Of a stretch of DNA of 64,000 bases, positions 11,789 through 43,064 are shown in pieces; within the stretch, counting starts at the first letter, position 1, and the number at the start of each line of letters is the position of its first letter. Made by a program: the position numbers and the translations under genes. Source of the DNA: Terriglobia bacterium (GTDB lineage: Bacteria; Acidobacteriota; Terriglobia; 2-12-FULL-54-10). The stretch covers positions 2,208,001 through 2,272,000 of the forward strand of contig CAXVYR010000004.1 of NCBI GenBank assembly GCA_963666975.2. The letters are read 5' to 3'. The notes beneath the pieces are model-generated. The model saw only the letters and a program-made list of their open reading frames with translations. It ran no database searches and was not told the DNA's origin.

Positions 11789-13642
11789 TTACCATTGAGC
11801 CGCCGGTCCGCCGAGTTCTACCTGGGCTCCCGTGGCCTGCATGCCGAATTCGCGGGCCAGCGACGGAACCAGGTGTGCCACCTTGCCTCCTACCATCGTC
11901 ATCAACACCCGGACATTCCTAATGTCATCCTCAGGAATGGTCAGGTAATCCCGATCGAGCACAATCAGGTCCGCCAATTTGCCCGGCTCCAGCGATCCCA
12001 ATACGTCCTCCTTCTTCGAGCCATAGGCCCCCCACAGCGTCGCGGACTTCAACATTGCCCGGCGATCCACCCCCTGTTGCGGCGCGGTAACGTTGCCGTC
12101 CCAATCCTTCCGTGTCACCCCGGAATACAGAACATGGAAGAGGGTCAGATTGGTGGAAGCAATCGCCCGGTCCAACTCCATGCTGTTGATAATCCCAGCG
12201 TCATTGAGACTCTTCCGGGGAACCACCTGCATCGCCCCTCGTTCGCCGTAGTCTCTCAGAATATCCTGGCCCCTGGCCTCCCAGATGTAGAAGTCCCAAC
12301 CGCTGGTCATTATGCCCAGCTTCTGGAAGCGGGGGATCTGGTCGGGACGAGGATACATGGCCATGTGCTCGGTGACGTGTCGTTTGGATCGAATCTCTTC
12401 CAGTGTCATGCCGGCATCTTTCCCCGCCTTCTCGATGATGTCCAGGATCAGGTCTATCTCTCCGTCCGCCATGATATGGTCCCCCGATAACCGGCCGCCA
12501 GCTTTCATATACTCGTAAAAGGCACGCGAAACGAGCGGGTCTTCGAAGAGGCAGGGACGCTCCCGCTGCTTGACCTCAGGCGAGGTGCCGGGCAGTTTGC
12601 TGCAGTTCCCGCCCATGCGAGGCGTCATGCCATTCACCCATAAATAGTCGGAACCCCGGCCTTCTTGAGCCGCTACAGCCTCAACAAAGTAAGGATCCTG
12701 AAAAAAATCGTTCCTATAAGGCCAGTACCAACCCCAACCCATGCGGATGGCCATTTTCCCTTGGCGTTCCAACCGGTTGTAGGCACGGATTGCACCCCCC
12801 GTGTAGAGGGAAGTTGCGTTCAGGGTTTGACCGTAGCCAGCCATCCAGGACAACCCCAGACGATAAATCTCCGCCAACACATCCGGCGGGAAACCTGCAT
12901 CCTGCTCGATATAGCGATAACAAGTGCTGCAAACTCCCCTTTCTGCATCCTGCGGGGGAATGGGCTTGATCAGAAACTTTTCCCACTGGTCGCCGTAATA
13001 CTTCTTGGTCTCTTCGACGACTTTCTCGTTAAATAAAGTCCCCACAAAGTTGGTGCGCACAACCACCGGATTGTTGGGCGCCGCCAGGTCCAGCATTTCC
13101 TTGGTGAGTTGCCGTCCCAAGAACGCGGTAATTTCTTCTCTCCAGCGGTAGTCCTTTCCGAACAACATCACAATTCGGACCCACTGGCCCGGCTTTGCCT
13201 TTCGAACCGCCTCCTCCAATACGCGAGGGAATTGCTGGAGCTGCTGCTGCGGGGGCGCATCCAGAAAACGGTGGACCATGATGTCGTCGGTAACAACCTT
13301 CTTCATGATGTAAGGATTCAGCGGGTCCCAGTCCTGGGGATGATCGTGGGTGAGCGCGATGCCCGGCATGACCATCCTGCCCTTCAGGTCATAGGACTTG
13401 GTGTTGCTGCCCGCCAGGCGACGAACCTGAGAATCGCTTCCCACGGCAACAATCTTTCCGTCCTGAAGCGCAATCGCCTGAGCCGAAGTGCCCAAGTTCG
13501 AATTGACCTCATGGTTGTCCACCGTCACGATCTTTCCATTGTGGAGAATGGTATCCGGACCTTGCTGGGCCCGAAGAAGATCCTGTCCAGTCCAGATTAG
13601 CCACATCATTAGCGCAAATCGCAGAATCCATCGGCTTTTCAT
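11789..13642 (-). CDS. Exported YtcJ-like amidohydrolase (Amidohydro_3), paralog A
   Basis: Signal peptide ..LRA|QQ; NGKIVTVD, DLKGRMVMPG, THDHP, GSLEPGKLADLIVLDRD. Confidence 0.88.
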   Translation of the reverse strand: MKSRWILRFALMMWLIWTGQDLLRAQQGPDTILHNGKIVTVDNHEVNSNLGTSAQAIALQDGKIVAVGSDSQVRRLAGSNTKSYDLKGRMVMPGIALTHDHPQDWDPLNPYIMKKVVTDDIMVHRFLDAPPQQQLQQFPRVLEEAVRKAKPGQWVRIVMLFGKDYRWREEITAFLGRQLTKEMLDLAAPNNPVVVRTNFVGTLFNEKVVEETKKYYGDQWEKFLIKPIPPQDAERGVCSTCYRYIEQDAGFPPDVLAEIYRLGLSWMAGYGQTLNATSLYTGGAIRAYNRLERQGKMAIRMGWGWYWPYRNDFFQDPYFVEAVAAQEGRGSDYLWVNGMTPRMGGNCSKLPGTSPEVKQRERPCLFEDPLVSRAFYEYMKAGGRLSGDHIMADGEIDLILDIIEKAGKDAGMTLEEIRSKRHVTEHMAMYPRPDQIPRFQKLGIMTSGWDFYIWEARGQDILRDYGERGAMQVVPRKSLNDAGIINSMELDRAIASTNLTLFHVLYSGVTRKDWDGNVTAPQQGVDRRAMLKSATLWGAYGSKKEDVLGSLEPGKLADLIVLDRDYLTIPEDDIRNVRVLMTMVGGKVAHLVPSLAREFGMQATGAQVELGGPAAQW

Positions 13643-13908
13643 TATTCACTCATCCTTTCATCACTTACTTTTGCCATCATGTTCGAAGATCGATTGCCCG
13701 GACGGTTTCGCTGACTTCACCTTAACAACATCCAGTATGCTAAGTCAAACAATGCGCTGCAAGTATCCCAAAACAACTCCTGACCCCAACCAACACCAGC
13801 CGAAGCGAGGTTTGTATCACGGCAGAATGCCCCCCTAGACTCCAATGGCCGGGAGCAAAAATTCTCTATTCGAAAACAGCGACCCATTCGAACCGGGTTT
13901 TTCCCGCT

Positions 13909-14910
13909 CTACCAGCCAGGCGGGATCTTGTCATTCCATGTGGTCGCGCCTACGGGTTGCATCCCGGTCTCAGTGGCAAAGGAAGAAGCTAGATGCACGA
14001 CCTTCCCTCCTACGGCCGACATCAGCACGCGAATGCTTGGGATCTGCTCCTCCGGGATGGTCAGGAAATCTTTATCCAACACAATAAAATCCGCAAGCTT
14101 ACCCGGTTCGAGCGTTCCCAACAGGTCTTCCCGCAAGATGTAATAGGACCCCCAGCGGGTCAGGGCCTTCAACTGGATAATCCTGTCCGTCCTTTGATCC
14201 GCTCCATTCTATCCCTGTATTCCCGCCCGGGGTCCAAAACGCATCGCGAAAGGCTGTCTGCGGCCTCCTGCCCGTGAGTTGCCACCCAATCCGGCCGAAC
14301 GGGGACGCTCATACAGTTCGTGCCGGATCTGCCCCACGCCCCCACTAACCAGAGGTGATCGGTGCCGTGCCCCTGGATGGCTGCCAAATACCGCAACGTA
14401 TCTACGTCCCAGTTGGGCCCCGTATAGCCCCAGGCGAAGCGGCCCGGCATTTCTCCCTTCCGGTCCAGGTAGTCCAGAGCATGTAAGTTCCGGTAGGCAT
14501 AGGGAGAGGAACCGAAGGTCGTGATCCCCCAGCTCGCCCACAACTCCATTTCCGCCTTCAGAATCTCGGCGAGCAGCGGCAGCTTGTCCTGGAGCATCAC
14601 ATCGGGTTCCACCGGCCGGTTGAAGCTAAAACCCGAGCTCAACCATTGTTCGATAGCCGGCGTACTATTCTCTACGCCATTGGTAAATACGGATAGCGTA
14701 GGGTGGACCTCGCGCAGCGCGTCAATGGCTTTCTGGTTGACCACGGAAAAAATAAACCCGCTCTTCACCTTCAATGGGTTGTTCGGAGCCAACTGATCCA
14801 GCCACGTCCACCTGCTGGGCCCGTCCCCCCGCGCTGCATAGAATTACGGCTATCACCAGAGTGAATGTTTTCTTTATCCCGCTGATCTCCGCATCAAAAA
14901 ACTGACCCAC
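13909..14910 (-). pseudogene. YtcJ-like amidohydrolase paralog with two large internal deletions
   Basis: Signal peptide (..GGRA|QQVDV) jumps out of frame to LDQLAPNNP; a second jump goes from RMERIK to TDRIIQLKALTRWGSYY..GTLEPGKLADF. The HxH motif region is lost. Confidence 0.8.
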
Positions 14911-14911
14911 G

Positions 14912-14958
14912 AAAAAAGGCGCTTCCTAAATGAGGAATCCCCCATTTTGAAAGCGCCT
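14912..14958 (-). terminator. Intrinsic terminator after the TonB-dependent transporter gene
   Basis: Minus strand AGGCGCTT..AAGCGCCT stem followed by a T-tract. Confidence 0.65.
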
Positions 14959-15017
14959 CCTTTTCTCTTCTCTTTCTTTTCTTCTCTTTCTCTTCTTCTC
15001 TTTCTCTTCTTCTCTTT
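14959..15017. repeat. Pure pyrimidine (C/T) tract with a TTCTCTTTCTC-like unit
   Basis: About 59 bp with no purines on the + strand. Confidence 0.85.
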
Positions 15018-15040: not shown

Positions 15041-18000
15041 TCAAAAGGTGAACTTCAACCCGAACTGAATCTGCCGCGACACGTTGAGCGTGTTGCTGAC
15101 CCTTCCCGCAGAGCCGACATCAATGAACGCGCCCGGACGGGCAAAAGTGGGACGATTGAAGATATTAAAGAACTCCGACCGGAATTCCAAGTTCATCTGC
15201 TCGCCAAAGGAAAAGTTCTTTCCCAACACCAAGTCGACGTTGTTGACTCCCGGGCCTGAAATGGTGTTTTTAGCCACGTTGCCTAAGAATCCACGCTCCT
15301 GGAGTACAAAAGCACTCGGGTCAAAGTAATTGTCAGGACCTCCCAAAACGGGGTTATTGGTGGATCCCGCTTGATCCGGGCGGCTAGTAAAACGAGCCGA
15401 ACCATTTTCGTGTCGCTGGGCACGCGTTAGTGCGGAAAATGGGTTGCCGTCCGAGAGCTTCAAGATTCCATTTACTTGCCAACCTCCTAACACTGCTTGC
15501 GCGACACCGCTCTGGAAGGCTGGGGTTGGTATCTCGTAAGAGAAATTGAGAATAAATCTGTTTCTTGTGTCGAAATCGGACAATCCTCGCTCGCTCTTGT
15601 GGTCATCCGGGTCCGGTCCTCCAGAGGCGCCATTTCCGTTATTCCCAACCTGATCCCACCTGTCATAACCTTCATCAATCGACTTGGAGAACGTGTAGGC
15701 GACCCCGAACTGTAATCCCCGGCTGAAGCGGCGATCCAGATTCACCTGCAGGGAGTTGTAAAAGGATTGAGCCCAGCTGGATTGGCGAGCATCGTTCGCA
15801 AAGTTGGGATTGCGCCGGCTAGTGGGGCCGTTAGGGCAGCTTGGGTTTCCGCCTGTGTAGTTGAAGCACTTGCGGCCATCGGAAAGGATGGTGGGTTGCT
15901 TGATATTGGCGGTTCTCATCATCAACAGGTGATTTCCCCTGGATCCGGCATAAGACACCTTTAACGAGGTTCCCTCCATAATCTCCCGCTGGACGGTCAG
16001 GTTGTACTGCATGATATAGGGGTGGTCGAGGTCAAAATCGTTGACTTGCAACGACGGCACCCCGCTAACAGCAGGGTCGACCCCTCTGTAGACTCCCAAG
16101 AAGGACGGGTTTGTGACGCTCCCAATACTGAAAAAAGGAGGGTTGCGAACCGAATTGATGAACCAAACGTTGGAAAGCAGATACTGCCGGAACATCCCGA
16201 ATCCCCCTCGGAGAGCGGTTTTGCCGTCCCCCCGCATATCCCAGGCAAAGCCAACGCGAGGCTGGAAATTTAGCCACTGGTCGGCTTGCTTAAAGAACGG
16301 TCCGATCGTGACCTCGGGGTCCAGGTTGTCCCTGACGTTCGCCAAAAGACCTTGGTTTTCCGTCGGAACAGTTGCCATTTCATATCGCATCCCAAAGTTC
16401 AAGGTGAAGCTCGGTCTGACTTGGTAAGAATCCTCTATGTGGAGACCAAACATAGACTGGCGCATACTGCGGACCGCGCCAGAGCCTATGGCGGCGCCGG
16501 TAAACCGCCGGGTTTCGGCCCTCAAAAAATTCTCCAGCGAACGAAAGAAGTAGCTTCCACCCTGAGAGGTGGGGGCGTTGAGATTGGCCTGATATCGCTT
16601 GATGTTCACTCCCATTTTTAACTGGTGTGCTCCCAGACTGCTGCTGACATCGTCCATGAACTGGAAGTTGTTCGTAATGTAAAGCTTCGGATAATTCCCA
16701 AAACCCCCAATAGACGTATGCGCGCCGCCATCGAACTGTAAGTCGGAACTGTCGCCAAATTGGAAGCCAGGAGTAATATCAAACTGAGACGGCAAAGGCG
16801 TGAAATTGAGTGTGTCGTCAACGCCTTGGAACGCGCGGGCGAACCCAAACCGCGCGGTATTGATCCAGATGGGCGAAAAGATGTGGTTGTGTTCCAACGT
16901 GGCGTACTGCCATCTATATCTTGCCTCCTGAGTGGTTGCGTTGAGTCTACCCGGACCACTAATCGTGGAATTGTCGTAGGTATAGCGGAAAAAAATGTTA
17001 TCGCTATCCGAGATGCGGTGGTCCACCCGCGTCATCCAAAACAATTGATCAGTCGGCTGACTGAAAGCTTGGACAAACTGTCCTGTGCCATCTCCATTAT
17101 TTATCGGGGTGTTCACTCGAGGCACAATCGCCTCGATGTAAGGCGCGATATCCGGATGGACCCCGATGTCGCCAAGACCAGGAAGGATTCCCATCCGGGC
17201 ATTGTCGTCCATGACTGTTTCGTTGGTGTCTTTGGCCAACCGCTCCCGGAGCAGTTCTATTGTTCCGAAAAAGAAAGTCCGGTCTCGGACAATGGGCCCT
17301 CCCGCGGCGCCCCCGAACTGGTTGCGCTTAAACGCTCCTTTGGGCTTCCCGGCCGCATTGAGGAAAAATTGATTGGCATCGAGCGAACTGTTGCGAAGAA
17401 ATTCAAACGCCGAGCCGTGTATCTCATTGGTCCCAGATTGAGTCACCGCATTGACCACCGCGCCGCCCTGGCTGCTGAAGGAGGCGGTGTAGCTATTGGT
17501 CATGACCGAAAACTCTCGAATGGCTTCGATACCCAATCCACCCCCATTCACTGCTCCGGGGACCTGACGGTGAACGTCGGAGACCTCCGTGCCGTCCATC
17601 AGAAACAAATTGGCGGACACCCTGGCCCCGCCGGAGGAGATTCTTTTTCCGGAACCGGTCCCGCCAGGGATAGATCCAGCCGCACCTTGGGAGTTCATCA
17701 CCGGGTTCATGCCGGTTTGCAGCAGTACGAGCTGGGTATAATCGCGGCCATTTAAGGGCAAATCGCGGATCTGTTTATCGTCAACCAGCTGCGACAGGGC
17801 AGAGGTCGTGGTCTCCACCACGGGAGCCTCCCCGGTTATGGTCACGCTTTCCGTGACCGCCCCTACGCTGAGCGTAATATTGATGGTCGCTTCCTGGCCC
17901 ACCGTTAACTGGATGCCAGCGCGAATCGACGCTTGAAACCCCGACAATTCCGCTCTCACGTCATACATTCCTACCTGCAGTTGCCGCAGGTGATAGACAC

Positions 18001-18253
18001 CTCTGGCATCGGTCTCCCCCCTGCGGACGGCTCCCGTGCCGGTGTTATTGGATGTCACGGCCACTCCCGGTATGACCGCCCCGGTGTCGTCGGTCACTGT
18101 GCCGGAAATCGTGGCAGTGGTCATCTGCGAATACCCGGTGGCGAGGAAAAGCACCACGGCAAGAACCGAGGTTGCCGCCGCTTTAGTCAGAGCACCGCCC
18201 TTATCACTGCCTCTATCAACGAGCCGCCTCGAAAAGAATCCATTCCGCTGCAT
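15041..18253 (-). CDS. Oar-like TonB-dependent outer-membrane transporter 1 (CarboxypepD_reg N-domain)
   Basis: TISGTVTDDTGAVIPG, DLPLNGRDY, FEFLRNSSLDA, RNQFGG, C-terminal RQIQFGLKFTF; GGAGG RBS before ATG 18253. Confidence 0.93.
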   Translation of the reverse strand: MQRNGFFSRRLVDRGSDKGGALTKAAATSVLAVVLFLATGYSQMTTATISGTVTDDTGAVIPGVAVTSNNTGTGAVRRGETDARGVYHLRQLQVGMYDVRAELSGFQASIRAGIQLTVGQEATINITLSVGAVTESVTITGEAPVVETTTSALSQLVDDKQIRDLPLNGRDYTQLVLLQTGMNPVMNSQGAAGSIPGGTGSGKRISSGGARVSANLFLMDGTEVSDVHRQVPGAVNGGGLGIEAIREFSVMTNSYTASFSSQGGAVVNAVTQSGTNEIHGSAFEFLRNSSLDANQFFLNAAGKPKGAFKRNQFGGAAGGPIVRDRTFFFGTIELLRERLAKDTNETVMDDNARMGILPGLGDIGVHPDIAPYIEAIVPRVNTPINNGDGTGQFVQAFSQPTDQLFWMTRVDHRISDSDNIFFRYTYDNSTISGPGRLNATTQEARYRWQYATLEHNHIFSPIWINTARFGFARAFQGVDDTLNFTPLPSQFDITPGFQFGDSSDLQFDGGAHTSIGGFGNYPKLYITNNFQFMDDVSSSLGAHQLKMGVNIKRYQANLNAPTSQGGSYFFRSLENFLRAETRRFTGAAIGSGAVRSMRQSMFGLHIEDSYQVRPSFTLNFGMRYEMATVPTENQGLLANVRDNLDPEVTIGPFFKQADQWLNFQPRVGFAWDMRGDGKTALRGGFGMFRQYLLSNVWFINSVRNPPFFSIGSVTNPSFLGVYRGVDPAVSGVPSLQVNDFDLDHPYIMQYNLTVQREIMEGTSLKVSYAGSRGNHLLMMRTANIKQPTILSDGRKCFNYTGGNPSCPNGPTSRRNPNFANDARQSSWAQSFYNSLQVNLDRRFSRGLQFGVAYTFSKSIDEGYDRWDQVGNNGNGASGGPDPDDHKSERGLSDFDTRNRFILNFSYEIPTPAFQSGVAQAVLGGWQVNGILKLSDGNPFSALTRAQRHENGSARFTSRPDQAGSTNNPVLGGPDNYFDPSAFVLQERGFLGNVAKNTISGPGVNNVDLVLGKNFSFGEQMNLEFRSEFFNIFNRPTFARPGAFIDVGSAGRVSNTLNVSRQIQFGLKFTF

Positions 18254-19236
18254 ATAAGCCCTCCAACATAATTTTGTAAGACTGTGGGAAGCGCACCTTC
18301 CAAAGCAATAACTAAACGACACCCCGCCTCATAAGGAACGACTCGACCCAAAATTCTCCAGTTGCTACCTTTTTACGCCTGTTCCTAACAGTCTGTCAAG
18401 GGTTTTTTATTGGAGTGTGTAATTAAAATTTAAGGATGATATGTCCTGTGGAATTAGCAAGTTAAGTGTTCTCTAGTAGGCGGCCTGGGGTAAGACCTCC
18501 TGTCCGGGAAGTGGAGATGGATGTTTGACTTCAGCGGAAATGGGAGCGATTTGAGACGGGGGGTAAGATACACAGTTTGAAGTTTGGTTCACCCCAAACT
18601 TAGGGATTAGACTGACGGAGCGAGCAGAGGCAGTCTAAGGCGGCCTTCGGGGCTCCATGCGGGCCGGAAAGGGTGAACAGGAAGGGCGAAAGCGAGCCGA
18701 GGGCCCAAGGGGTCTGGGGGATCAGAGATCCTGCCGGCGCCATTCCCCGGCCAAGGCCAGTTGGAAGCTGCAGGCTTTCACCGCCAGGATCACCGGCTAC
18801 CGGGCGAAGTAACTTCGCAGGGCGCTCGGGGTCGTTGGCGCCGCGACCCTGTAAGGAGAATTTATCCGGTTGCATCTATGGCGATCCTGTAACAAAATCG
18901 TCGGTGAAGGTCTACTCCGATGTAGACCATCCCGTGCGTGCTGGCTGTGAAATGGTTTCTTGCTCGCAACCATTCCTGTCGCCTCCAGGCACGGCGTCTT
19001 CATTTTATCTAAGGGGATGGACGGACTCCTGCGAGGCTCAGATGTGCGGTGACTTCCCTCATGCGCTACAGCGCGGCGAACATCCCGCGATTGGCGGCAT
19101 GCGACGCCACGGTTGAACTCATGCCCTGACGGTTCAGATCGTCACCGTATTCTATAATCCTCAATAGCAGATCAAGACTTCTAGCCGTAGGACAGGCCTC
19201 CAGGGACTGTTCTCCAATCACCCCGGGAGGAACGCC

Positions 19237-21060
19237 ATGAGGAAACTCCGTGATTCCTGGCTTGCCGCTTGCCTAATTTCTCTTCTCTGGATCCTCCCCG
19301 TTTCCGCTGCTCCTCAAGGCGAACAGCCGGGCATCCTGGTGATCGAAGGGGGGACCCTGATTGACGGCAACGGAGGAGAGCCTGTGCCGGATGCCGTAGT
19401 CGTCATCCGGGGAAACAGGATCGAGAGTGTGTCTCGAAAGGGGCAAGCGCGCTACCCGGCGGACGCGCAGGTACTTCAAGCCGACGGAAAGTTCATCCTG
19501 CCCGGCTTGATGGACGCGCATGTTCACTACGCTGGATGGATGCCGGAACTGATGCTCTCTCACGGCGTGACGTCGATCTTTTCAATCGGCACCGGAGGCC
19601 AGTGGGCCGTTGCCCAACGCGAGGCGATTGACCGGGGCAAGATTCCCGGTCCCAGAACCTTTGTGGCAGTGGGCACCGTGCTTGGGCCGTGGCACACGGA
19701 AATGGCCCCGATGACGAGTCGCCAGGTGATTGACTCGCCTGAAAAGGCAAGAGAAGCCGTGAAACGTTATATTGCCGCTGGGGCCGATATGGTCAATGTG
19801 CAACGGGGACTCACGCTGGAAGCCTGGAAGGCGGTCATCGAGGAGGCTCATCAAGCAGGCTTGCCCGTCGTGGCCCAGCCCATAGGACCCACGGTTTACG
19901 CGAGGGAAGCCATCCTGGCCGGGGCCGATATTCTGGAGCATGCGGCCGGAGTGGGTTACTCGATCGTCAAAGACCCTTCCCAGTGGGAGGGCTACGGCGA
20001 CGTCGAAGTGCACTCGATCGATCCGACTCCTTTTGCCGACATGGACGAGAGGAAGGCTGCGGAACTGATCCAACTGATGGTAGAGCGCAACGTCTATTTG
20101 GAACCGGACATGATCGCCGTGGGGCGGGGATTTCAAGCAGGCCGTGAGCGCTTTGAGTTGCAAGACCGCAGGTTGCTGGACAACCCGGGCCTTGCCTATG
20201 TTCCCGAACAGAACCGCCAAAAGATTTTCATGACCTACAGAGAATTTGAGCATCTGGAGCCTGCCGAATGGGAACGCAAGCAAAAGGGTTACCAGAACAT
20301 GCTGCGGTTTATCCGGCAGTTCGCGCAGGCTGGAGGAAAGGTGATGACCGGGACAGACGCCGCAGGCTGGGATGTGCCCGGTCTAGGCTTGCATCATGAG
20401 ATGGAGATACTAGTGGAGGAGGCCGGGCTGACCCCGATGCAAGCCATCGTGGCGGCGACCCGGAATCCTGCCGAGGGGTTCCGGGTGCTGGATCGCTTAG
20501 GAACTATCGAGGCAGGCAAGCTGGCTGACTTGGTCATCGTCAATGACGATCCCCTGGAAAACATCCGCAACCTGCAGGACATCGAGTGGGTGGTCAAAGA
20601 TGGGAAGGTGGTGGATCGAACTTACCATGCCTGGTTTCAGAACCCGTTGCCGCGCGGCAGGGCAACAGCTCAGGACTGGTTCGCAGCCCTGAAGCGACAG
20701 TCCCTGCAAGGGATTCGAACACGGGCCGGCTTGAGGGACCCCACCTGGTCGTTTGGGCAGCCCACCCCGGGGATCGAATCGATCTCTCCGAGCATGGTTA
20801 CGGAAGGAGAACCGACCCGGACCCTGACCATCAAGGGAGTGAACTTCACCACCAGATCGCTGGCCTATTTTGACGGCAAGCCCGTACCCACCCGTCTAGC
20901 GAGTGAAACGGAGCTGAGAGTTACAATCGACGCCGGCTTCATCGCACGCGTTGGGACATATCCTATCGTAGTAAGGAATCCGGGACTGTCCCAGCAACCG
21001 CAATGGGGGGGAGATACGTCGAACACGGCTCACCTCCTGGTGAATTTTAAACCAGAATAA
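19237..21060 (+). CDS. Exported metal-dependent amidohydrolase with C-terminal IPT/TIG-like domain
   Basis: Signal peptide; PGLMDAHVH, ILEH, GTD, GTIEAGKLADLV; C-terminal PGIESISPS..LTIKGVNF..GTYPIVVRNP. Confidence 0.88.
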   Translation: MRKLRDSWLAACLISLLWILPVSAAPQGEQPGILVIEGGTLIDGNGGEPVPDAVVVIRGNRIESVSRKGQARYPADAQVLQADGKFILPGLMDAHVHYAGWMPELMLSHGVTSIFSIGTGGQWAVAQREAIDRGKIPGPRTFVAVGTVLGPWHTEMAPMTSRQVIDSPEKAREAVKRYIAAGADMVNVQRGLTLEAWKAVIEEAHQAGLPVVAQPIGPTVYAREAILAGADILEHAAGVGYSIVKDPSQWEGYGDVEVHSIDPTPFADMDERKAAELIQLMVERNVYLEPDMIAVGRGFQAGRERFELQDRRLLDNPGLAYVPEQNRQKIFMTYREFEHLEPAEWERKQKGYQNMLRFIRQFAQAGGKVMTGTDAAGWDVPGLGLHHEMEILVEEAGLTPMQAIVAATRNPAEGFRVLDRLGTIEAGKLADLVIVNDDPLENIRNLQDIEWVVKDGKVVDRTYHAWFQNPLPRGRATAQDWFAALKRQSLQGIRTRAGLRDPTWSFGQPTPGIESISPSMVTEGEPTRTLTIKGVNFTTRSLAYFDGKPVPTRLASETELRVTIDAGFIARVGTYPIVVRNPGLSQQPQWGGDTSNTAHLLVNFKPE

Positions 21061-31194: not shown

Positions 31195-31212
31195 AGCTTG
31201 AAAACTGGCATG

Positions 31213-31256
31213 AGGCGCTTTGGCAGGGGCTAACACCCTTTGCCGAAGCGCCTTTT
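31213..31256 (+). terminator. Hairpin/terminator after transporter 3
   Basis: AGGCGCTTTGGCAGGGG-CTAACA-CCCTTTGCCGAAGCGCCT followed by TTT. Confidence 0.65.
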
Positions 31257-31376
31257 GCTTGAATGTCATAAATTTTTGCAAATTGAATGCGGGTTGCCGT
31301 TGAAGCAAGTTGGAGTGAGCATGGGCAACCGGGCGGAGTTCCATATTCGGTTCGATTCGTCACGGAGGGCTAAATC

Positions 31377-33260: not shown

Positions 33261-33416
33261 AACATCGCGGCGGGACCGCGCCGATTCAGCCGGTTTTGAA
33301 ATTTGAGTGCCAGCTAATTGTATGGCGATACTTGTCAGAACGAAGAGGCAATAGGCTGTTCTGACCGACAAGCACAGCACGGCTAACATTAACAATCCGA
33401 AAGGGTGGGTAAATGT

Positions 33417-35279: not shown

Positions 35280-35309
35280 CCTTCGAGGCTTGGTTTTTTG
35301 CCTAACCGA

Positions 35310-35566
35310 AGAGGTTGTTGGAAAACTGGTGTATGGGTCCGCTTGCTAATCCCTCGGCTTCGCTCCCTTCGGCTATGCTCCCTTCGACTTCGCTCAGGGC
35401 AGGCAGGGCAGGCGCGCGCGGCTCTGCAACTGCAGCCCAATCAGCACGCCCATTCCGAGCCGCGATAGCCTGCCCCGAGCGAAGCCGAGGGGTGAGGGAG
35501 CGGACAAATGGCGTTTTTCAACAACCTTCTGCTTTTCAACAACCTTCTACTTTTCAACAACCTCCT
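35310..35566. mobile_element. MITE-like element with IS5-like ends, nested REP-like repeats and a triplicated right end
   Basis: AGAGGTTGTTGGAAAA at 35310; TTTTCAACAACCT(T/C)CT x3 at 35515, 35533 and 35551; internal inverted palindromic repeats. Confidence 0.7.
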
Positions 35567-35598
35567 AAATGCGGCAACACTTCCCGCGGAGTAAATTT

Positions 35599-37524
35599 AT
35601 GAACAGCCGGTCGGTTTTGCGACTTGTGGTGACGGCGTGGGCATTCTGGGCTGGAGCAGTCCTCCTCCATGCCCAACAGACGCCCGACACCATTCTCTAC
35701 AATGGCAAGATCGTCACCGTGGATGACCACAGTTTCAATTCCCGCTTGGGGACAATCGCGCAAGCGATGCATGTCCGGAATGGCAAAATCCTGCACCTGG
35801 GCAACGATGCGGAAATTCGTGCGATGGCAGGGGCCAACACCAGAGTAATGGATCTGAAAGGACGTACGGTGATTCCGGGGATCATTCTCACCCATGAACA
35901 TCCATACGATTGGGGGTCGGTTGACATCTATGCGCTGAAAAAATATCTCACCGACGACCAGGTTGTTGTCAGGATTCTGGAAGATAGTCCCCAGGAAAAT
36001 GTGAAGGCATTCCCTGGAGTGCTGGCGGAGGCTGTTTCGAAGGCGAAGCCTGGCCAGTGGATATACATTGTTATCACTTCTGGAAAGAACTTCGAATATC
36101 ACGCGATGAGCAACGGTGGTTTGGGACGCAGTTTGCTGGACCCCTCCCTGCGAATACCCGAAGAGATGCAAATCACAAAAGAACAATTAGACGCGGCGGC
36201 GCCCAATAATCCAGTCTATGTCGGTGGCTGGCTTTCGGTAACGGGTGTTCGTCGCGGAGAAGGGTTGAACCAGAGAGGGATTGAGGAAGCCGAGAAGGTG
36301 TTGCCCCCCGGCCCAGCCTACCAATCTGAGGAGATTAGCGGCCGCACCATTTTCGCAGAAGTGATTATGAAGGACTATTACCCGCAGCTCGTCCAGATCA
36401 TGCGGAGTGGTCTGGAGTGGTGGGCGGGATACGGGATGACGACCTATGCATCGCACCTCTATACCCCTTCCAATCTCAGGATCTGGCGGGAACTGGACCG
36501 CAAAGGACAGATGCCGGTCCGGAATATGTGGACCTTTCGATGGAACTCCGAGTACTTGCTTTCCGATCTATTTTTCATCACTGACATAGCTACCCGGTTA
36601 GGCGAAGGATCGGATTACTTCTGGAATGGAGGAGCGGCTTTTAGAACTCTCGGTGGCGGCGGTGACTGCACGTCTGCGCAGCCTGTGCCTTCCTCGAAAA
36701 TAATGCAGGAAGAGGAATTCGCTGCGGAAATGAGGGAACGCCGGCAAAGAAACTGCCGGTTCGCCCCCAACTCAAAGGAATTTGAGATCCTCGAGAAGTT
36801 TATCCGCGCGGGGGGACGGTTCGTGAATCTGCATACGACGGGAGACGGCACGGTGGACGGTATGCTGATGGCTATTGAACAGGCCAGTAAAGCCGCTGGC
36901 ATGACCGAGGAGGAGATTCGCGCCAAGCGGCATGGGGCGGACCATACGGTGATGTGGCCCCGGCCCGATCAGATTCCGGTTCTAAAACGGCTGGGTATGG
37001 TTGTCAGCAGTGATGGCTATGAGATTGTGATGGCCTCCCCGTCCGTTTTTGACCTTTACGGGGAACGATCTGCCAGGTGGGTTGCGCCCAAGAAAAGCCT
37101 CACGCAGGCAGGAATCTACAACTCTCTAGAGATAGATCGCCCCCTTCAGACGACTACAAACCTGACAATTTTCTCCGCCGGCATTGACCCGATCATCACG
37201 CGGAGAGCCTGGGATGGCAAGGTGTACGCACAAAATGAGGCGGTGGATCGGGAATCGGCTCTAAAGATCGCCACTTACTATGGAGCCTACTATGTCTTGC
37301 GGGAAAACGTCCTGGGTTCCCTGGAGCCGGGGAAATGGGCGGATATGCTTGTGCTCGACCGGGATTATCTGACCATTCCAGAGGATGACATCAGGAACAT
37401 CCGCGTTTTGATGACGATGGTAGGTGGAAAGGTCGTTCACCTGGTGCCCTCTCTGGCCCGAGAAATCGGGATAGAGCCGGCGGGGGCGCAGGTAGAACTC
37501 GGCGGTCCTGCGGCTCAATGGTGA
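35599..37524 (+). CDS. Exported YtcJ-like amidohydrolase, paralog D
   Basis: GGAG RBS, ATG 35599; THEHP; LHTTGD; tail GAQVELGGPAAQW. Confidence 0.88.
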   Translation: MNSRSVLRLVVTAWAFWAGAVLLHAQQTPDTILYNGKIVTVDDHSFNSRLGTIAQAMHVRNGKILHLGNDAEIRAMAGANTRVMDLKGRTVIPGIILTHEHPYDWGSVDIYALKKYLTDDQVVVRILEDSPQENVKAFPGVLAEAVSKAKPGQWIYIVITSGKNFEYHAMSNGGLGRSLLDPSLRIPEEMQITKEQLDAAAPNNPVYVGGWLSVTGVRRGEGLNQRGIEEAEKVLPPGPAYQSEEISGRTIFAEVIMKDYYPQLVQIMRSGLEWWAGYGMTTYASHLYTPSNLRIWRELDRKGQMPVRNMWTFRWNSEYLLSDLFFITDIATRLGEGSDYFWNGGAAFRTLGGGGDCTSAQPVPSSKIMQEEEFAAEMRERRQRNCRFAPNSKEFEILEKFIRAGGRFVNLHTTGDGTVDGMLMAIEQASKAAGMTEEEIRAKRHGADHTVMWPRPDQIPVLKRLGMVVSSDGYEIVMASPSVFDLYGERSARWVAPKKSLTQAGIYNSLEIDRPLQTTTNLTIFSAGIDPIITRRAWDGKVYAQNEAVDRESALKIATYYGAYYVLRENVLGSLEPGKWADMLVLDRDYLTIPEDDIRNIRVLMTMVGGKVVHLVPSLAREIGIEPAGAQVELGGPAAQW

Positions 37525-37640
37525 GCGTCAGGGTGGCGCCGTGACCTTTGCTGTCACGATCCGCCGGACAGGCGGCAGCGGCCTTCCGCTTCGCTTGCCT
37601 TTCTTATTTAATCTTCTGAAAATAACCGTGGGGTGAATTG

Positions 37641-39503
37641 ATGAAAACTCGATGGATTTTGCGACTGGCAGTGACGGCATGGGTAATCTGGGCCGGAGAG
37701 GGCCTCCTCCGGGCCCAACAGACGCCCGATACCATTCTTTACAATGGGAAGATCGTTACGGTGGACAACCATGAGGTCAATGAGCAGTTAGGCACTGTCA
37801 CCCAGGCTCTGGCCATCACAGGCGATACGATTGTGGCCGTGGGAGACAACTCTCGAATTCGAGCTATGGCTGGCCCCAGCACCAAGAGCATTGATCTGAG
37901 GGGACGGACGGTGGTGCCGGGCTTTAGCGGCACGCACGATCACCCCATGGACTGGGACACGATCAATCCGTTCATCGTAAAAAAAGTAGTCAGCGATGAC
38001 ATGCACATTGAGCGGTTTTTGAATGTTGCTCCGGATGAGGCATTGCAACAGTTTCCGCAGGTTTTAGAGGAAGCGGTACGGACGGCCAGACCCGGCCAAT
38101 GGATTCGGATTAGTCTGCTTTATGGAAAGGAATATCGCTGGGGAAGTCAGATCATGGCGTTTTTCGGGCGGCAGATTAACAAGCAAATGCTGGATCTGGC
38201 TGCACCCGACAATCCGGTGGAAATTCGCGGCGGTTTTATTGGATTGGTGTTGAACCAAAGAGCGATTGAGCTGACCAAGGCGCACTATGGGGACCAATGG
38301 GATAAGTTTGTCTGGAATCCCTATGGTGACATTGAGAACACAGGAACCGGAGCCACCGCCTATAGGTGGTTGGAACAGGATGTGCTCTATCCGCCCGAGG
38401 TCTTGCAGGAGATCTATCGGCTAGGTCTGTCCTGGATGGCGGGCTATGGGGTGACGCTGAACGCATCGGGTCTTTACACCCCCGGAGCCGTTGCCGCCTA
38501 CCGCGCATTGGACCAGGGAGGGAAAATGGCTATCCGAGTCCCCTGGAGCTGGCAGTGGAGGCCGCGCCCTGACTTCTGGTCCGATCCATATCTTCCGGAG
38601 GTGATGGCAACCATGGTGGGAAGCGGGTCGGACCACCTCTGGCTGAATGGACTGTGGCCCTCAGACAACGCCTCGAGTTGTTCCACACTGCCCGGTACCT
38701 CCCCGGAGGTGAAGCAGCGGGAAGTCTGCCACTTTGGTTCTGACTTTCGCGACGGTGAGAATGCGGTAGCATTGTACAACATGGTCAAGGCGGGCGGCCG
38801 ATTAGCAGGGATACACACCGAGGCCGACAAGGATATAGACCTTATTCTGGACATCATCGAGAAGGCGAGCAAAGACGCCGGGATGACTTTGGACCAGATT
38901 CGGGCCAAGCGGCACGTCTATGACCATATGGGGATGAGTCCTCGGCCGGATCAGATCCCTCGGATCAAAAATCTGGGCATGATGACGGGCGGTTACAACA
39001 TGTTCCTTTGGGAAGGGGCAGGGGCGCAGGTGTTGAAGGATTACGGAGAACAGGCGGCTCAATGGGTGCAACCACGCAAGAGCCTCCTCAATGCCGGAGT
39101 GATGAATAGCGTAGAGATCGACCGGCCCATTGGATACACCGACCTGACTTACTTTACCGTCCTCTATGCAGGGATTACGCGGAAGGATCAAGACGGAAGG
39201 ATCATCGCGCCGAGTGAGGCCGTGAGCCGGGAAGCTATGCTGAAGTCGGCAACGATTTGGGGAGGGTACTACTCCAAGCGCGAGGATAAACTAGGGTCGA
39301 TCGAGCCCGGCAAGTGGGCTGACCTGGTCGTGCTGGACCGGGATTACCTGACCATTCCCGTGGACGACATTTTGAATATCCGGGTTTTGATGACCATGGT
39401 GGGAGGCGAGGTTGTGCACCTGGTGCCCTCCCTGGCCCGCGAAATCGGGATGCCGCCTGCTGGGGCGCAAGTGGAGCTCGGCGGGCTGGCGGCGCAATGG
39501 TAA
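37641..39503 (+). CDS. Exported YtcJ-like amidohydrolase, paralog E
   Basis: Signal ..LRA|QQ; THDHP; IHTEAD; tail GAQVELGGLAAQW. Confidence 0.88.
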   Translation: MKTRWILRLAVTAWVIWAGEGLLRAQQTPDTILYNGKIVTVDNHEVNEQLGTVTQALAITGDTIVAVGDNSRIRAMAGPSTKSIDLRGRTVVPGFSGTHDHPMDWDTINPFIVKKVVSDDMHIERFLNVAPDEALQQFPQVLEEAVRTARPGQWIRISLLYGKEYRWGSQIMAFFGRQINKQMLDLAAPDNPVEIRGGFIGLVLNQRAIELTKAHYGDQWDKFVWNPYGDIENTGTGATAYRWLEQDVLYPPEVLQEIYRLGLSWMAGYGVTLNASGLYTPGAVAAYRALDQGGKMAIRVPWSWQWRPRPDFWSDPYLPEVMATMVGSGSDHLWLNGLWPSDNASSCSTLPGTSPEVKQREVCHFGSDFRDGENAVALYNMVKAGGRLAGIHTEADKDIDLILDIIEKASKDAGMTLDQIRAKRHVYDHMGMSPRPDQIPRIKNLGMMTGGYNMFLWEGAGAQVLKDYGEQAAQWVQPRKSLLNAGVMNSVEIDRPIGYTDLTYFTVLYAGITRKDQDGRIIAPSEAVSREAMLKSATIWGGYYSKREDKLGSIEPGKWADLVVLDRDYLTIPVDDILNIRVLMTMVGGEVVHLVPSLAREIGMPPAGAQVELGGLAAQW

Positions 39504-39607
39504 GCGGCCAGAAGGGACAACCCCAACTGGAATTCCGCTTTGTCGGCCGCCGCTAGCGCTCGTCAGGTTCGGTTCGCACTCAGGTTTGAATAAGGAGGTA
39601 ATAATCC

Positions 39608-41557
39608 ATGAGAAAAATTTCTTTTTTGAACTGTTCGTTTTTCTTCGTCCTCGTTTTTCTTTTGCTGCCGGTGAAGGGAGCACAAGGGCAAAACGCTGCC
39701 GATTTAGCCAGGAAGCTGGAGCGGCTCCAGGCTTATCCGGAGTTGATCGTCGTCAACGGCAAGATATCCACCATGGATGAACGGCTTACCGAGGTGGAAG
39801 CTATGGCCGTTAAGAACACACGGATTCTGGCGCTGGGAAGCAATGATGATATCCAGTTTCTGGCCGGTCCGAACACGAGGGTGCTGGACGCGAAGGGGCG
39901 GAGGGTGTTGCCGGGCCTAATAGATGGTCACACTCATCCGCATCTTTGGGCCGTAGAGCACTGGCTCGGGGCGGAAGGAGATTTTACCTCCCAGAAATAC
40001 AACGACCCGCAGCTGAAGATCACCTACGCCAAGGGGAATGACGGGGCCGAAGTGTTGCAGTCGCTGGAACGGGCCGTTCGCCAGAGGGCCCAGGAATTAG
40101 GTCCCGGCAAGTGGATTTGGATCGGCTTGTTTGGGAAAAACACGCTCGTCGAATCCAGAGAGGTTGTCTACCCCCTCTTCCAGCGGGCAACCGGAGAACC
40201 GGGAACGATTACCCGAGAGTTTTTGGACACGCTGGCCCCCGACAACCCCCTGATGGTGTTTGGAAGCGAAGCCATCGGGCCGGCCGCCAACAATACCAAA
40301 GCCAAGGAGGAGATGGAAAAATATCTGGGCGTGGAAGTGAGGGGGTTGTCGGCCCGCAATTCGGTAACCTACGACATTCTGTTCCGCGGAAAAACAGAGG
40401 AAAAGCTGGACTTCCTCAAGCGCGAGTTGCTCGAATGCGTGGTGGCCCAAGGGATCACCACTTTTAGCAACCATTATTACAACTCCCCCTCCATTATGAA
40501 TATCTACCGTTTACTGTACGAACGGGACGAACTGCCCGTGCGGTGGGCTTGGTGGGTGGGCGGAGGCCTCGGCGCTAGCCGTGTGCAAAGTGATTCCTCC
40601 TTCAGCGCCCAATATCCCAGTCTCTTTTATAACGATCTGGGAGACTTCCGGGGAATCGGAAACGATTACATATGGAATGTCGGTGTTTCCAACGAAGGCT
40701 GGGAAGGCGGGATTTCGTGCACCAAAGCCACTTTGCCGGCTAACGCGCAAGCGCCTAGCTCCGGGATTGCCCGGGTGCATCGGGATGGCATTCTTCGCCC
40801 ATCCTGTTCCGAGCCGATTGACTATGACAATCAGCCGGGATACCGGCGGGTGAAGGCGGCAATGGAAGCCGGCCTGCGCATCGGGTTCCTGCACCATTAC
40901 AGCGATGGAACGTTCGATGCTTTATTTCACATGATCGAAGAGGCGATTGCCGAGGGTAAGATGACCCTGGAGCAGGTGCGAGCGCTTCGGATCAGCACGG
41001 AGCATACCCCGATGGTTCGCCCGGATCAGGTGGAGAAGATAGCCCGCTATGGGATCATGCCGGCTTTTAATGGTTACCAGGTTCAGGGGAACATTAAAGG
41101 TGGCGCGTTCCTGAAGGCCTTTGGCGAGCAATACATGAGCTGGATGGCGCCCATGAAGAGCCTGGTCGATGCCGGGGCGCATCCGGTGTTCAACACCGAT
41201 GCCCACTTGCATAAGGTTCCGATCGAATCCAAGGACATGGACTACCCGCCGCAGTGGGATGGCAACATCTGGGGGTTCATTGAATTTTTTGTAACCCGCC
41301 GGATGCCCCATGACGGGATCACTTACGCCAGCCAGGAGGCAATGGATCGGACTGCCCTGATGAAGGCGGCTACCATTTGGGGAGCTGAGCAGGTCCTGCG
41401 CGAGGACCACATTGGTTCGCTGGAGGTGGGAAAGCTGGCCGATTTTATCGTCATTGACAAGGACTACTTCGCAATTCCCGGAGACCAAATTGGCACCATC
41501 AAGACATTACTGACCGCCGTGGGTGGAAAGACAGTGTTCCAGGCTCCAAACTACTAA
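39608..41557 (+). CDS. Exported YtcJ-like amidohydrolase, divergent paralog F
   Basis: AAGGAGGT RBS; canonical PGLIDGHTHP; LHHYSD; ISTEH; FNTD; GSLEVGKLADF; lacks the AQW tail. Confidence 0.88.
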   Translation: MRKISFLNCSFFFVLVFLLLPVKGAQGQNAADLARKLERLQAYPELIVVNGKISTMDERLTEVEAMAVKNTRILALGSNDDIQFLAGPNTRVLDAKGRRVLPGLIDGHTHPHLWAVEHWLGAEGDFTSQKYNDPQLKITYAKGNDGAEVLQSLERAVRQRAQELGPGKWIWIGLFGKNTLVESREVVYPLFQRATGEPGTITREFLDTLAPDNPLMVFGSEAIGPAANNTKAKEEMEKYLGVEVRGLSARNSVTYDILFRGKTEEKLDFLKRELLECVVAQGITTFSNHYYNSPSIMNIYRLLYERDELPVRWAWWVGGGLGASRVQSDSSFSAQYPSLFYNDLGDFRGIGNDYIWNVGVSNEGWEGGISCTKATLPANAQAPSSGIARVHRDGILRPSCSEPIDYDNQPGYRRVKAAMEAGLRIGFLHHYSDGTFDALFHMIEEAIAEGKMTLEQVRALRISTEHTPMVRPDQVEKIARYGIMPAFNGYQVQGNIKGGAFLKAFGEQYMSWMAPMKSLVDAGAHPVFNTDAHLHKVPIESKDMDYPPQWDGNIWGFIEFFVTRRMPHDGITYASQEAMDRTALMKAATIWGAEQVLREDHIGSLEVGKLADFIVIDKDYFAIPGDQIGTIKTLLTAVGGKTVFQAPNY

Positions 41558-41930
41558 ATCCGGAACCGCCAAGTCTGGATTCGTTCTACATACGTCGCCT
41601 GCGGGCAAAGCGCAAAAGAAACGATGAATCGGGCGTGAAGCCGTATCCCCCGGACTGACTGGGTAAGCCAGACGCAGAACGGGTTGGAACTGGATGCAGG
41701 TCAGTTGGGGAACCTAGAGTTCGTGCTGGAACGTTCTAAACCCCAGCAGGGAGGGGTTCAAGGCACGGTCGAGGAAGCGGCAGAGTCGCCCTCCGCCACC
41801 ACTGCCTGGCAGGTTTGGTTGGCCTTGCGATTGTCGTTCTAGCATTACAGATTCCGAATCCGATAGAATTCCCACGTCTCATGGAGTCCAACACAGGCGG
41901 GAGACATTACCGAAGGGGGTATTCATTCAA

Positions 41931-43064
41931 ATGTTGTCACGAATTTTTTGCCTGGCTGCCCTGAGTTTAGCTTTTCTACTCCAGAGTGCTTGCACCGGGG
42001 AGATAAGTCCTGAGCTGATTTGGGTTCCTCCTGATGACACCCGGTTGCAGTGGTTGAATGTTGCCGGTTGGGAACAGGAAGGAGAAGCATTTCGTCCGGC
42101 GCGCGTACCCCGAGATTGGCGAGACCGATTCCCGGAGAGGACCGCCCAGACAGCCATGGCACCTGCCGGGGTCGTATTACGAGTTGCAACAGACGCCCGG
42201 AAAGTAGCCCTGCGCATCAGTGTAGATCCACCCCGGCCAAGGCCGGCAGGCGCTCCGACGAGGCCACCGTCTGTAACTGCAACTGCCTTTGATGTTTACC
42301 GGAATAACGAATTTCTACTCAGCGCGGACACTTCGGGAGAACCCGGTGCCCAGGAAATCACGCTTTATGAAAACCCTCCGAATGGCAGCGGCGAAATCGC
42401 CGTTTTGTTTCCTGCTGGCCTCTCGTTCGTGGTGCAGAGTGTGGGCTTTTCGAGCGACGCACAGTTTGCTCCTCCGAACCGGCCGGCCCAACCACGGGTT
42501 CTCTTCCATGGCGATTCGATTACGCAGGGAACCGGCGCCACCCACAGCAGAAATACGTACGCGTGGGTGACCTGCGAGAAGATCGGGTGCGAGCCGATCA
42601 ATCTGGGTTTTGGGGGAAGCGCTTGGGGCGATCAACCCGTGGCAGAATATATCGCCAGCCGAAACGATTGGAATGCGCTTGTGGTCGCTTACGGCACAAA
42701 CACCTACCGTCGAGCCCACGAGGATCCGGAACAGTTTGCTCAAACCTACGATACTTTCCTGGCCACGGTTCGGGCCGAACACCCCGACGCACCGATCCTG
42801 TGCATCACGCCCCTGTGGCGCATCCAAGACACGACGAACGAGAAAAACGAGGGCGGATACACCCAACAACAGTATCGGGAGGCAGTCACACAGGTCGTCA
42901 GCCGCCGCCAGAGCTCCGATTCTAACCTGCACCTATTAGAAGGCAAAGATTTGGTCCCGGAAAATCTTTTCACTGCCGACCAGGTTCATCCCAACAATGA
43001 AGGTGCGGCACAAATGGCCGAAGCTATCGCGAACGCATTAAGACCACTGCTCGGACCCTTGTAG
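41931..43064 (+). CDS. SGNH/GDSL hydrolase, probable lipoprotein
   Basis: Lipobox-like LQSAC; GDSITQG, NLGFGG, GTN, DQVHPN. Confidence 0.88.
   Translation: MLSRIFCLAALSLAFLLQSACTGEISPELIWVPPDDTRLQWLNVAGWEQEGEAFRPARVPRDWRDRFPERTAQTAMAPAGVVLRVATDARKVALRISVDPPRPRPAGAPTRPPSVTATAFDVYRNNEFLLSADTSGEPGAQEITLYENPPNGSGEIAVLFPAGLSFVVQSVGFSSDAQFAPPNRPAQPRVLFHGDSITQGTGATHSRNTYAWVTCEKIGCEPINLGFGGSAWGDQPVAEYIASRNDWNALVVAYGTNTYRRAHEDPEQFAQTYDTFLATVRAEHPDAPILCITPLWRIQDTTNEKNEGGYTQQQYREAVTQVVSRRQSSDSNLHLLEGKDLVPENLFTADQVHPNNEGAAQMAEAIANALRPLLGPL

Follow-up and report, generated by a model that had tools for sequence, protein, structure and literature searches.

Exported YtcJ-like amidohydrolases expanded across a Terriglobia genome and located preferentially, not obligatorily, beside Oar-type TonB-dependent transporters

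In polysaccharide-utilization loci (PULs), and in carbohydrate loci centered on TonB-dependent transporters (TBDTs), an outer-membrane TBDT is encoded next to exported hydrolases. According to the cited part of PMC11658791, TBDTs serve compounds whose size or scarcity is too great for porins. A role in protein export is described for Oar of Myxococcus xanthus, which is required for the secretion from the periplasm of PopC, a protein without a signal peptide (PMC6434023, cited section). The Amidohydro_3 family (PF07969), most of which is reported as uncharacterized, includes the secreted, metal-dependent bile salt hydrolases BwBSH1 and BwBSH2 of Bilophila wadsworthia, which carry Sec signals, are encoded by adjacent paralogues and cleave N-acyl taurine conjugates outside the cytoplasm (bioRxiv 10.64898/2026.04.05.716592, cited passages). 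Here we analyze a region of approximately 31 kb (positions 11789-43064) in a 64,000-nt stretch of a Terriglobia bacterium genome (phylum Acidobacteriota), referred to below as the window, in which exported YtcJ-like Amidohydro_3 (PF07969) genes, abbreviated AH, stand beside genes of Oar-type TBDTs; coordinates are positions in the window unless a contig is given. Sec-exported YtcJ-like metallo-amidohydrolases have expanded throughout this genome in a lineage-specific manner; the modules of this region are part of that expansion, whose members lie preferentially, not obligatorily, beside TBDTs.

The window's own assembly (4.23 Mb, 4 contigs, 98.9% complete) contains 108 matches to AH5, the copy chosen for modeling. 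A scan of open reading frames (ORFs) at E<=1e-30 retrieved 94 AH genes, which occupy 171 kb or 4.0% of the genome and of which 87 are full length (at least 560 aa). They form 57 arrays, of which 38 are singletons, 14 have 2-3 copies and 5 have 4-7 copies; in C2:306638-330927, seven AH genes are followed by two TBDT genes and one more AH gene. A preliminary description of this DNA had proposed one dedicated locus, an idea that fails because the 94-copy family has many clusters, of which the region is one. At the same threshold, Oar-type TBDTs account for 40 ORFs and 2.8% of the genome. Each of the 13 other genomes from the same family has many AH copies; among other families of the class, only 4 of 17 genomes have 1-3 matches at 1e-20, and in an even sample of the phylum matches at 1e-60 were found in 1 of 120 other genomes (G135, from another class). 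The AH expansion is a family-level trait. The named database relatives are all proteins of metagenome-assembled genomes labeled 'Acidobacteria bacterium', and a protein-language-model atlas returned only Acidobacteriota amidohydrolase clusters without names.

All six intact AH proteins of the region match PF07969 with 103.9-133.8 bits (cut-off 29.7). AlphaFold2, run on AH5 with 70 homologues, gave a confident model (predicted local distance difference test, pLDDT, 95.0; predicted template-modeling score, pTM, 0.92) with the (beta/alpha)8 barrel and small beta-sandwich of the Pyrococcus structures 3ICJ and 3IGH, which are also its best Foldseek matches (3icj, E 2.8e-24, template-modeling score, TM, 0.77; 3igh, E 8.1e-24, TM 0.76, both relative to the target; 18-19% identity). 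The next fold matches are of the mononuclear deaminase/triazine-hydrolase and imidazolonepropionase types. Membership of the D-aminoacylase or NfdA type was considered and rejected, no such structure being present among the sequence matches or the top fold matches.

The metal-site residues are retained almost throughout the family. Among the 87 full-length paralogues, H100/H102 and H430 are present in all, H393 in 86 and D495 in 83 (with Glu in three more), and the HxH/His/His/Asp set is invariant in the 70 homologues used for the model, whose secondary structure places HxH after strand 1, the two further His after strands 5 and 6, and Asp after strand 8. Position 333 aligns with the Lys in the GVKLFVDG strand of 3ICJ, which we take to be the carbamylated, metal-bridging Lys on strand 4; Lys is absent from this position in all 87 paralogues (Tyr in 57, His in 19, Phe in 6, Leu in 2, Trp in 2 and Arg in 1), which would place them outside the canonical carbamylated-Lys binuclear subtype, and their site is probably Lys-less and mononuclear, an unusual feature of the subfamily. 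A pair of Cys (Cys348/Cys364) is nearly invariant (83/87 and 82/87) and, in an exported protein, fits a disulfide. Variable, indel-rich segments (161-180, 211-250, 301-320, 341-380, 451-470 and 501-510) alternate with the conserved catalytic strands, as would be expected of paralogues with different specificities. For the least saturated pair, AH3-AH5 (dS 0.67), dN/dS is 0.20, indicating purifying selection on the paralogues.

Signal segments were recognized by a strict heuristic in 73 of the 87 full-length AH proteins and are evident by inspection in 11 more, and no lipobox was found in any of the 87. With metal-site residues kept and signal-like segments present, the AH genes look both catalytically intact and exported, as had been proposed, and their products would act in the periplasm. 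Of the 87 proteins, 75 end in an aromatic residue (39 in W, 20 in Y, 16 in F), and they do so in subfamilies whose tails are otherwise unlike; the motif G.Q[VIL].[LIVM]GG is common to 32 of 87, and the AH5 C-terminus lies at window position 39501. This terminus matters for a very improbable reading, namely that Oar-type TBDTs are TonB-powered gates that move the Sec-exported AH proteins across the outer membrane, so that hydrolysis takes place outside the cell. The aromatic C-terminus would then be part of a recognition signal, the PF13620 N-terminal extension of Oar is found in the window TBDTs too, and Oar is needed for PopC secretion. That export role, however, is a single experimental precedent (PMC6434023, in the section cited), concerning a cargo without a signal peptide; moreover, most AH genes have no adjacent TBDT, and the tail of AH5 is modeled as folded onto the protein (pLDDT 89-97). 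A complex prediction for mature AH2 with the TBDT3 N-terminal extension gave no verdict and counts neither way. If such export did occur, the genome would encode dozens of enzyme-secretion modules of a kind known from a single protein.

The association between the two families was compared with simulated random placement (2000 placements in the window's own genome, 5000 in G135). In the former, an AH gene is found within 5 kb of 26 of the 40 TBDTs, against 7.4±2.4 expected and a maximum of 17 in any simulation, and within 1 kb of 14 of them (4.2±2.0 expected). A TBDT is found within 3 kb of 4 of the 5 arrays of at least four AH copies, compared with 8 of the 38 singletons. In G135, 4 of 13 TBDTs are within 1 kb of an AH gene (0.67 expected; reached by 0.34% of placements) and 5 of 13 within 5 kb (1.2 expected). 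On metagenome contigs, counted without a matched null, a TBDT stands beside an AH gene at 13 of 80 loci (4 of 26 at identities of at least 38%, 9 of 54 among more distant ones), and in some of these the two gene types alternate. Around distant YtcJ-like genes of many phyla, a control set made up mostly of genes at 23-30% identity from the contig search, a TBDT is nearby in 4 of 80, all from Acidobacteria, again without a matched null. In the TBDT tree, the AH-linked transporters are spread over several deep clades, the three of the window falling into three different ones, and the linkage label changes 7 times, compared with 10.5 for shuffles. The linkage is thus recurrent and enriched but facultative.

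The region was annotated by ORF listing and Pfam scans of 14 ORFs, and contains the following features, AH1 and AH2 to AH6 being the intact AH genes:

11789-13642, minus strand: AH1, exported YtcJ-like amidohydrolase of 617 aa (PF07969, E 1.9e-29; 62% identity to AH5).
13942-14804, minus strand: AH remnant, a pseudogene in two pieces matching AH5 residues 184-352 and 529-611.
14912-14963, minus strand: terminator-like hairpin 3' of TBDT1, with 24-nt arms and -32.9 kcal/mol, followed by TTTTTT.
15041-18322, minus strand: TBDT1, Oar-type (PF25183 OMP_b-brl_4, E 8.8e-173; PF13620 CarboxypepD_reg, E 6.9e-20).
19237-21060, plus strand: AH_IPT, exported Amidohydro_1 protein of COG1228 type with a C-terminal IPT/TIG domain (PF01979, E 2.4e-23; TIG, E 6.5e-07).
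21108-23210, plus strand: exported protein with cytochrome c, CarboxypepD_reg and a Vgb_lyase-like beta-propeller (PF24684, E 2.2e-15; PF13620, E 3.8e-11; PF13442, E 5.8e-08).
24075-27509, minus strand: TBDT2, Oar-type (PF25183, E 6e-179; PF13620, E 1.6e-18).
27781-31194, plus strand: TBDT3, Oar-type, with signal, N-terminal extension, plug and barrel (PF25183, E 3.1e-174; PF13620, E 5.9e-22; Plug PF07715, E 5.4e-06).
31208-31258, plus strand: terminator-like hairpin between TBDT3 and AH2, with 18-nt arms and -38.5 kcal/mol, followed by TTTTGCTT.
31377-33260, plus strand: AH2 (PF07969, E 7.4e-30; 68% identity to AH5).
33405-35279, plus strand: AH3 (PF07969, E 2e-37; 79% identity to AH5).
35569-37524, plus strand: AH4 (PF07969, E 5.4e-33; 50% identity to AH5).
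37638-39503, plus strand: AH5, the modeled copy (PF07969, E 1.7e-38).
39608-41557, plus strand: AH6, divergent subfamily member (PF07969, E 1.3e-31; 31% identity to AH5) without the GAQVELGG..W tail.
41931-43064, plus strand: SGNH/GDSL hydrolase with a lipoprotein-like signal (PF13472, E 1e-20; lipobox-like N-terminus ..LAFLLQSAC).

This inventory agrees, at or near the same positions, with that of the preliminary description (three TBDTs, six intact AH genes and a deleted copy, an amidohydrolase-IPT protein, a cytochrome/propeller protein and an SGNH protein). The Pfam check it had proposed was run and recovered PF07969 in all six AH genes and the Oar-type barrel family in all three TBDTs, and its statement that no glycoside hydrolase is recognizable holds, since neither glycoside hydrolase nor SusD-like or regulator families were matched among the 14 ORFs scanned. 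AH2 to AH6 are arranged head to tail on the plus strand; AH1 to AH6 are 617-651 aa long, and AH1 and AH2-AH5 share 50-79% pairwise identity, AH6 being approximately 31% identical to them. Signal-like N-terminal segments are visible in AH1-AH6 (that of AH1 reads MKSRWILRFALMMWLIWTG..LLRAQQ), AH_IPT, the cytochrome protein, TBDT3 and the SGNH hydrolase. All three TBDTs carry full-length PF25183 together with PF13620, and the plug (PF07715) is reported separately in TBDT3 only. The likely start of TBDT1 is the first in-frame ATG, at 18253, and the coordinates of TBDT2 are those of the longest ORF, its true start probably being an internal Met shortly before the signal segment. The deleted AH copy is real: its pieces at 14301-14804 and 13942-14190 (minus strand; G000:C4:2222301-2222804 and 2221942-2222190, G000 being the window's own assembly) correspond to AH5 residues 184-352 and 529-611, respectively, so that the N-terminal 183 codons and approximately 175 internal codons are missing, and a 207-aa ORF within it (14169-14792) can be aligned to the AH family in the middle part only and has no Pfam match. 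The two larger gaps of the region hold an ankyrin-repeat ORF and short unsupported ORFs, and nothing else. The former, at 23494-23977 (minus strand) between the cytochrome/propeller gene and TBDT2, encodes a small protein with repeats recognized by eye and a lipoprotein-like signal (..LLLTRTGC); it is represented by two overlapping ORFs and may be frameshifted.

Comparison with the congeneric genome G001 indicates that at least four modules lie side by side in the region: AH1-remnant-TBDT1; AH_IPT with the cytochrome/propeller gene; TBDT2; and TBDT3-AH2..AH6-SGNH. The single coherent 31-kb locus of the preliminary description is not upheld, because G001 holds the counterparts of these modules on different contigs or in different places. 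Only the TBDT3-AH array-SGNH module is syntenic there (protein identity 86-94%), with TBDT3 (86% identical) heading and the SGNH gene (86% identical) closing the array; G001:C4:788549-808067 contains seven AH copies, against five in window 27626-43186, and copy number therefore turns over within the genus. The extra G001 copies sit between the orthologs of AH4 and AH5 and those of AH5 and AH6. The counterpart of AH1-remnant-TBDT1, at 89-94% nucleotide identity, is on a separate contig, TBDT2 has its ortholog in a different place next to another AH gene, and AH_IPT with the cytochrome/propeller gene is represented by nucleotide matches of only approximately 69%, in the opposite gene order.

Several observations weigh against a functional coupling of the transporters and hydrolases, and the first concern transcription. 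Strong terminator-like hairpins part TBDT1 and TBDT3 from the AH genes; the preliminary description had noticed hairpins after the transporters, and they proved to be real and strong (-32.9 and -38.5 kcal/mol, respectively). Genome-wide, hairpins at least as strong as -25 kcal/mol occur within 100 nt downstream of 7 of 34 TBDT genes, 4 of 150 other genes and 1 of 87 AH genes, and scans with consensus promoters and terminators gave the same counts as shuffled sequences and missed both strong hairpins. Because such hairpins resemble intrinsic terminators, TBDT and AH genes need not form one operon and may be separate or attenuated transcription units. Of the sampled words, 41-58% were present in four metatranscriptome runs, all from one study, and a fraction of 0.06 in a further run labeled as an animal-host metagenome. 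Contigs of the four metatranscriptome runs that are 100% identical to the window extend over TBDT3, AH2 and AH3 and, in part, over AH5 and AH6. Two of these contigs bridge genes, one from TBDT3 to AH2 across the hairpin (30628-31442) and one from AH2 to AH3 (32795-33468), and we count them in favor of coupling, although contigs of this kind carry neither strand nor expression level, may reflect DNA carry-over and come from a single study.

Further points of the same kind come from genome organization. In two genomes of the same family and another genus, G003 and G009, TBDTs within 5 kb of an AH gene number 3 of 34, which is the chance level (2.3±1.4 expected), and 3 of 21, a low count given without a simulated expectation, so that the expected linkage in other genomes was confirmed only in part, G135 and the metagenome contigs standing for it and these two genomes against it. 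AH genes more than 5 kb from any TBDT make up 53 of 94 in the window's own genome and 31 of 34 in G135, and 30 of the 38 singletons have no TBDT within 3 kb. The identities of adjacent TBDT and AH pairs are weakly correlated (r 0.26; 23 of 1000 permutations as high). Insertion sequences (IS) are abundant in the genome (blastp clusters of 40 IS481-type, 59 Mutator-type and 21 DDE_Tnp_1_4 ORFs), and an AH gene is no more than 4 kb away from 13 of the 40 IS481, 9 of the 59 Mutator and 7 of the 21 DDE copies; transposases are the commonest neighbors of AH genes, and they flank the region as well (IS1595 at 458-1120, IS481-type at 43971-44954). Among 40 same-strand neighbors scanned of 47 candidates, with a tetratricopeptide-repeat (TPR) protein and a Vgb_lyase propeller scanned separately, no recurrent inner-membrane permease, peptidase or regulator was found beside the arrays, no family occurring more than once among the matches listed (25 of 43). 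A single Na:alanine symporter, a single DASS-type symporter and a single S9 peptidase are among these neighbors, together with several esterases.

These data would fit a history in which the AH and TBDT families each expanded and were gathered in IS-rich regions or copied as blocks, without coupling, the AH enzymes acting, for example, on small compounds that enter through porins. In addition to the low counts in G003 and G009, the frequency of transposases, the hairpins 3' of TBDTs and the unlinked singletons, such a history would account for the scattering of the window modules in G001 and for the weak co-duplication signal. Part of the linkage may indeed stem from block duplication, given the weak co-variation and the IS-rich AH clusters; such duplication explains the pattern in part but not entirely. 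We consider proximity without coupling possible but rather unlikely, since the observed number of linked TBDTs exceeds that in every one of the random placements, the linkage recurs in the unrelated G135 lineage and on metagenome contigs, and the order of TBDT3 and its AH array is kept in G001 at approximately 90% identity. Moreover, the AH-linked TBDTs are distributed over deep clades (branch lengths 0.2-0.6), which indicates that the linkage has outlasted long divergence.

Outside the region, other genes of the window were also recorded. An SBF (sodium/bile acid symporter family) transporter gene (E 1e-27) is located at 6411-7325 (plus strand), approximately 4.5 kb from AH1, a curious position given that the only characterized exported PF07969 enzymes are bile-salt hydrolases. 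At 9696-11594 (plus strand), Bax1-I (residues 2-192) and Nramp (251-599) share one 632-aa frame, either as a real fusion or as two genes read through. A SUF iron-sulfur operon (SufB/D, a SufC-like ABC ATPase, a SufS-type aminotransferase and a NifU-like protein), followed by an Rrf2 regulator, occupies 56739-63074; it is a housekeeping unit outside the present finding.

The second module adds a different amidohydrolase. The best solved relatives of AH_IPT are the L-Arg carboxypeptidase Cc2672 (3mtw, E 8.4e-29), 3be7 (1.3e-24) and a Xaa-Pro dipeptidase (2qs8, 3.2e-23); with 154.3 bits against the NCBIfam Xaa-Pro dipeptidase model NF051886 (cut-off 500), AH_IPT appears as a relative, not an equivalog, of Xaa-Pro dipeptidase and Cc2672. 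The genome encodes 25 Cc2672-like ORFs (E<=1e-30). At G000:C4:198266-221821, seven Cc2672-like Amidohydro_1 genes stand with two AH genes and one TBDT gene, a second exported amidohydrolase family arrayed by a transporter. Five matches to TonB_C (PF03544) above the cut-off were found in the genome.

The neighboring cytochrome/propeller protein has two CxxCH motifs (CWVCH and CGFGCH) N-terminal to its Vgb_lyase-like propeller, and 10 paralogues in the genome at E<=1e-10. This protein bears on a doubtful reading, in which the battery serves defense, detoxification or signal degradation by opening and hydrolyzing cyclic (depsi)peptides, N-acyl compounds or lactam/lactone signals derived from competitors or the host; the Vgb-lyase-like propellers and esterases would be its ring-openers. 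Propellers of the Vgb_lyase family do recur, one in the window and 3 of 10 members of a paralogue family near AH genes, SGNH and other esterases are among the neighbors, and N-acyl taurine conjugates are substrates of a secreted PF07969 enzyme (bioRxiv 10.64898/2026.04.05.716592, in the passage cited). On the other hand, the Vgb_lyase match in the window is weak (56.7 bits against a cut-off of 50), efflux and regulator genes are not recurrent beside the arrays, and approximately 90 kept paralogues, amounting to 4% of a 4.2-Mb genome, are more commonly a sign of nutrient scavenging than one of resistance.

We propose that TBDTs feed periplasmic batteries of C-N hydrolases acting on bulky or scarce amide compounds, a prediction to which we give an even chance. 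The TBDTs would use TonB energy to import into the periplasm organic-nitrogen compounds with amide-type C-N bonds that are scarce or bulky (above porin size), most plausibly peptide-like or N-acylated ones. There the AH paralogues, with a common Lys-less metal site (HxH, His, His, Asp) and differing loops round the barrel mouth, would cleave the imports, the Cc2672-like carboxypeptidase-type amidohydrolase and the SGNH esterase would trim the products, and the trimmed products would then be assimilated. Of the import and periplasmic C-N cleavage system envisaged in the preliminary description, the exported, intact enzymes and a statistical link to TBDTs stand; the single locus does not, hairpins part the TBDTs from the AH genes, and the linkage is facultative.

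The likeliest substrate class, peptide-like or N-acylated compounds, is a guess, because no close characterized AH homologue is available, which also counts against the coupled reading. It is favored by the resemblance of AH_IPT to peptide-cleaving amidohydrolases, by the large or scarce compounds ascribed to TBDTs (PMC11658791, part cited) and by the N-acyl taurine conjugates cleaved by one characterized exported PF07969 enzyme (bioRxiv 10.64898/2026.04.05.716592, part cited). Small formamides would presumably not need a TBDT. Approximately 90 intact exported paralogues under purifying selection in 4.2 Mb point to a large substrate space, and because most of PF07969 is described as uncharacterized in the cited part of the same preprint, the AH subfamily offers enzyme discovery a clearly delimited target. 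Should the coupling prove functional, some Acidobacteria would treat organic nitrogen as Bacteroidota treat polysaccharides, with many transporter-hydrolase units, each for a different amide.

Compared with the uncharacterized YtcJ-like proteins 3ICJ and 3IGH, the AH proteins share PF07969, the fold and the HxH/His/His/Asp residues, whereas they are approximately 130 residues longer, carry a Sec-type signal and are only 18-19% identical. Relative to 3ICJ, the paralogues have Tyr, His or Phe instead of the strand Lys, a near-invariant Cys pair and approximately 90 copies per genome. The BwBSH enzymes resemble them in PF07969, the Sec signal and neighboring paralogues, with amide cleavage established for BwBSH, and they differ in that BwBSH1 has 945 aa with an extra C-terminal domain important for activity and that the BwBSH genes adjoin a type II secretion system, in place of the TBDTs adjoined by the AH arrays (bioRxiv 10.64898/2026.04.05.716592, cited description). 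The AH length of 617-651 aa speaks against membership of the BwBSH cluster, the two being compared by description only. The existence of these secreted enzymes makes outdated the premise of the preliminary description that characterized Amidohydro_3 members are single cytoplasmic enzymes. AH_IPT is similar in sequence to the Cc2672/Sgx9260-type (COG1228) proteins 3mtw, 3be7 and 2qs8, from which it differs by a score below the equivalog cut-off, the additional C-terminal IPT/TIG domain and the 25 paralogues in the genome. The window TBDTs have the same domain order as M. xanthus Oar, namely signal, PF13620 extension, plug and large barrel, as far as the cited description goes (PMC6434023).

The arrays resemble PULs in that a TBDT gene stands beside a battery of exported hydrolases, with diversified paralogues, and in that this arrangement is repeated many times per genome. 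The label 'PUL-like' used previously does not hold in the strict sense, as neither a SusC/SusD-like pair nor a glycoside hydrolase nor a dedicated regulator is present among the ORFs scanned; furthermore, the hydrolases belong to the amidohydrolase superfamily, hairpins follow the TBDTs and the linkage is facultative. No description of TBDT-linked amidohydrolase arrays was found in the literature searched, in agreement with what had been claimed. We class the AH arrays with two known kinds, transporter-linked hydrolase loci and the amidohydrolase superfamily, and regard as new their combination in the form of TBDT-linked amidohydrolase arrays.

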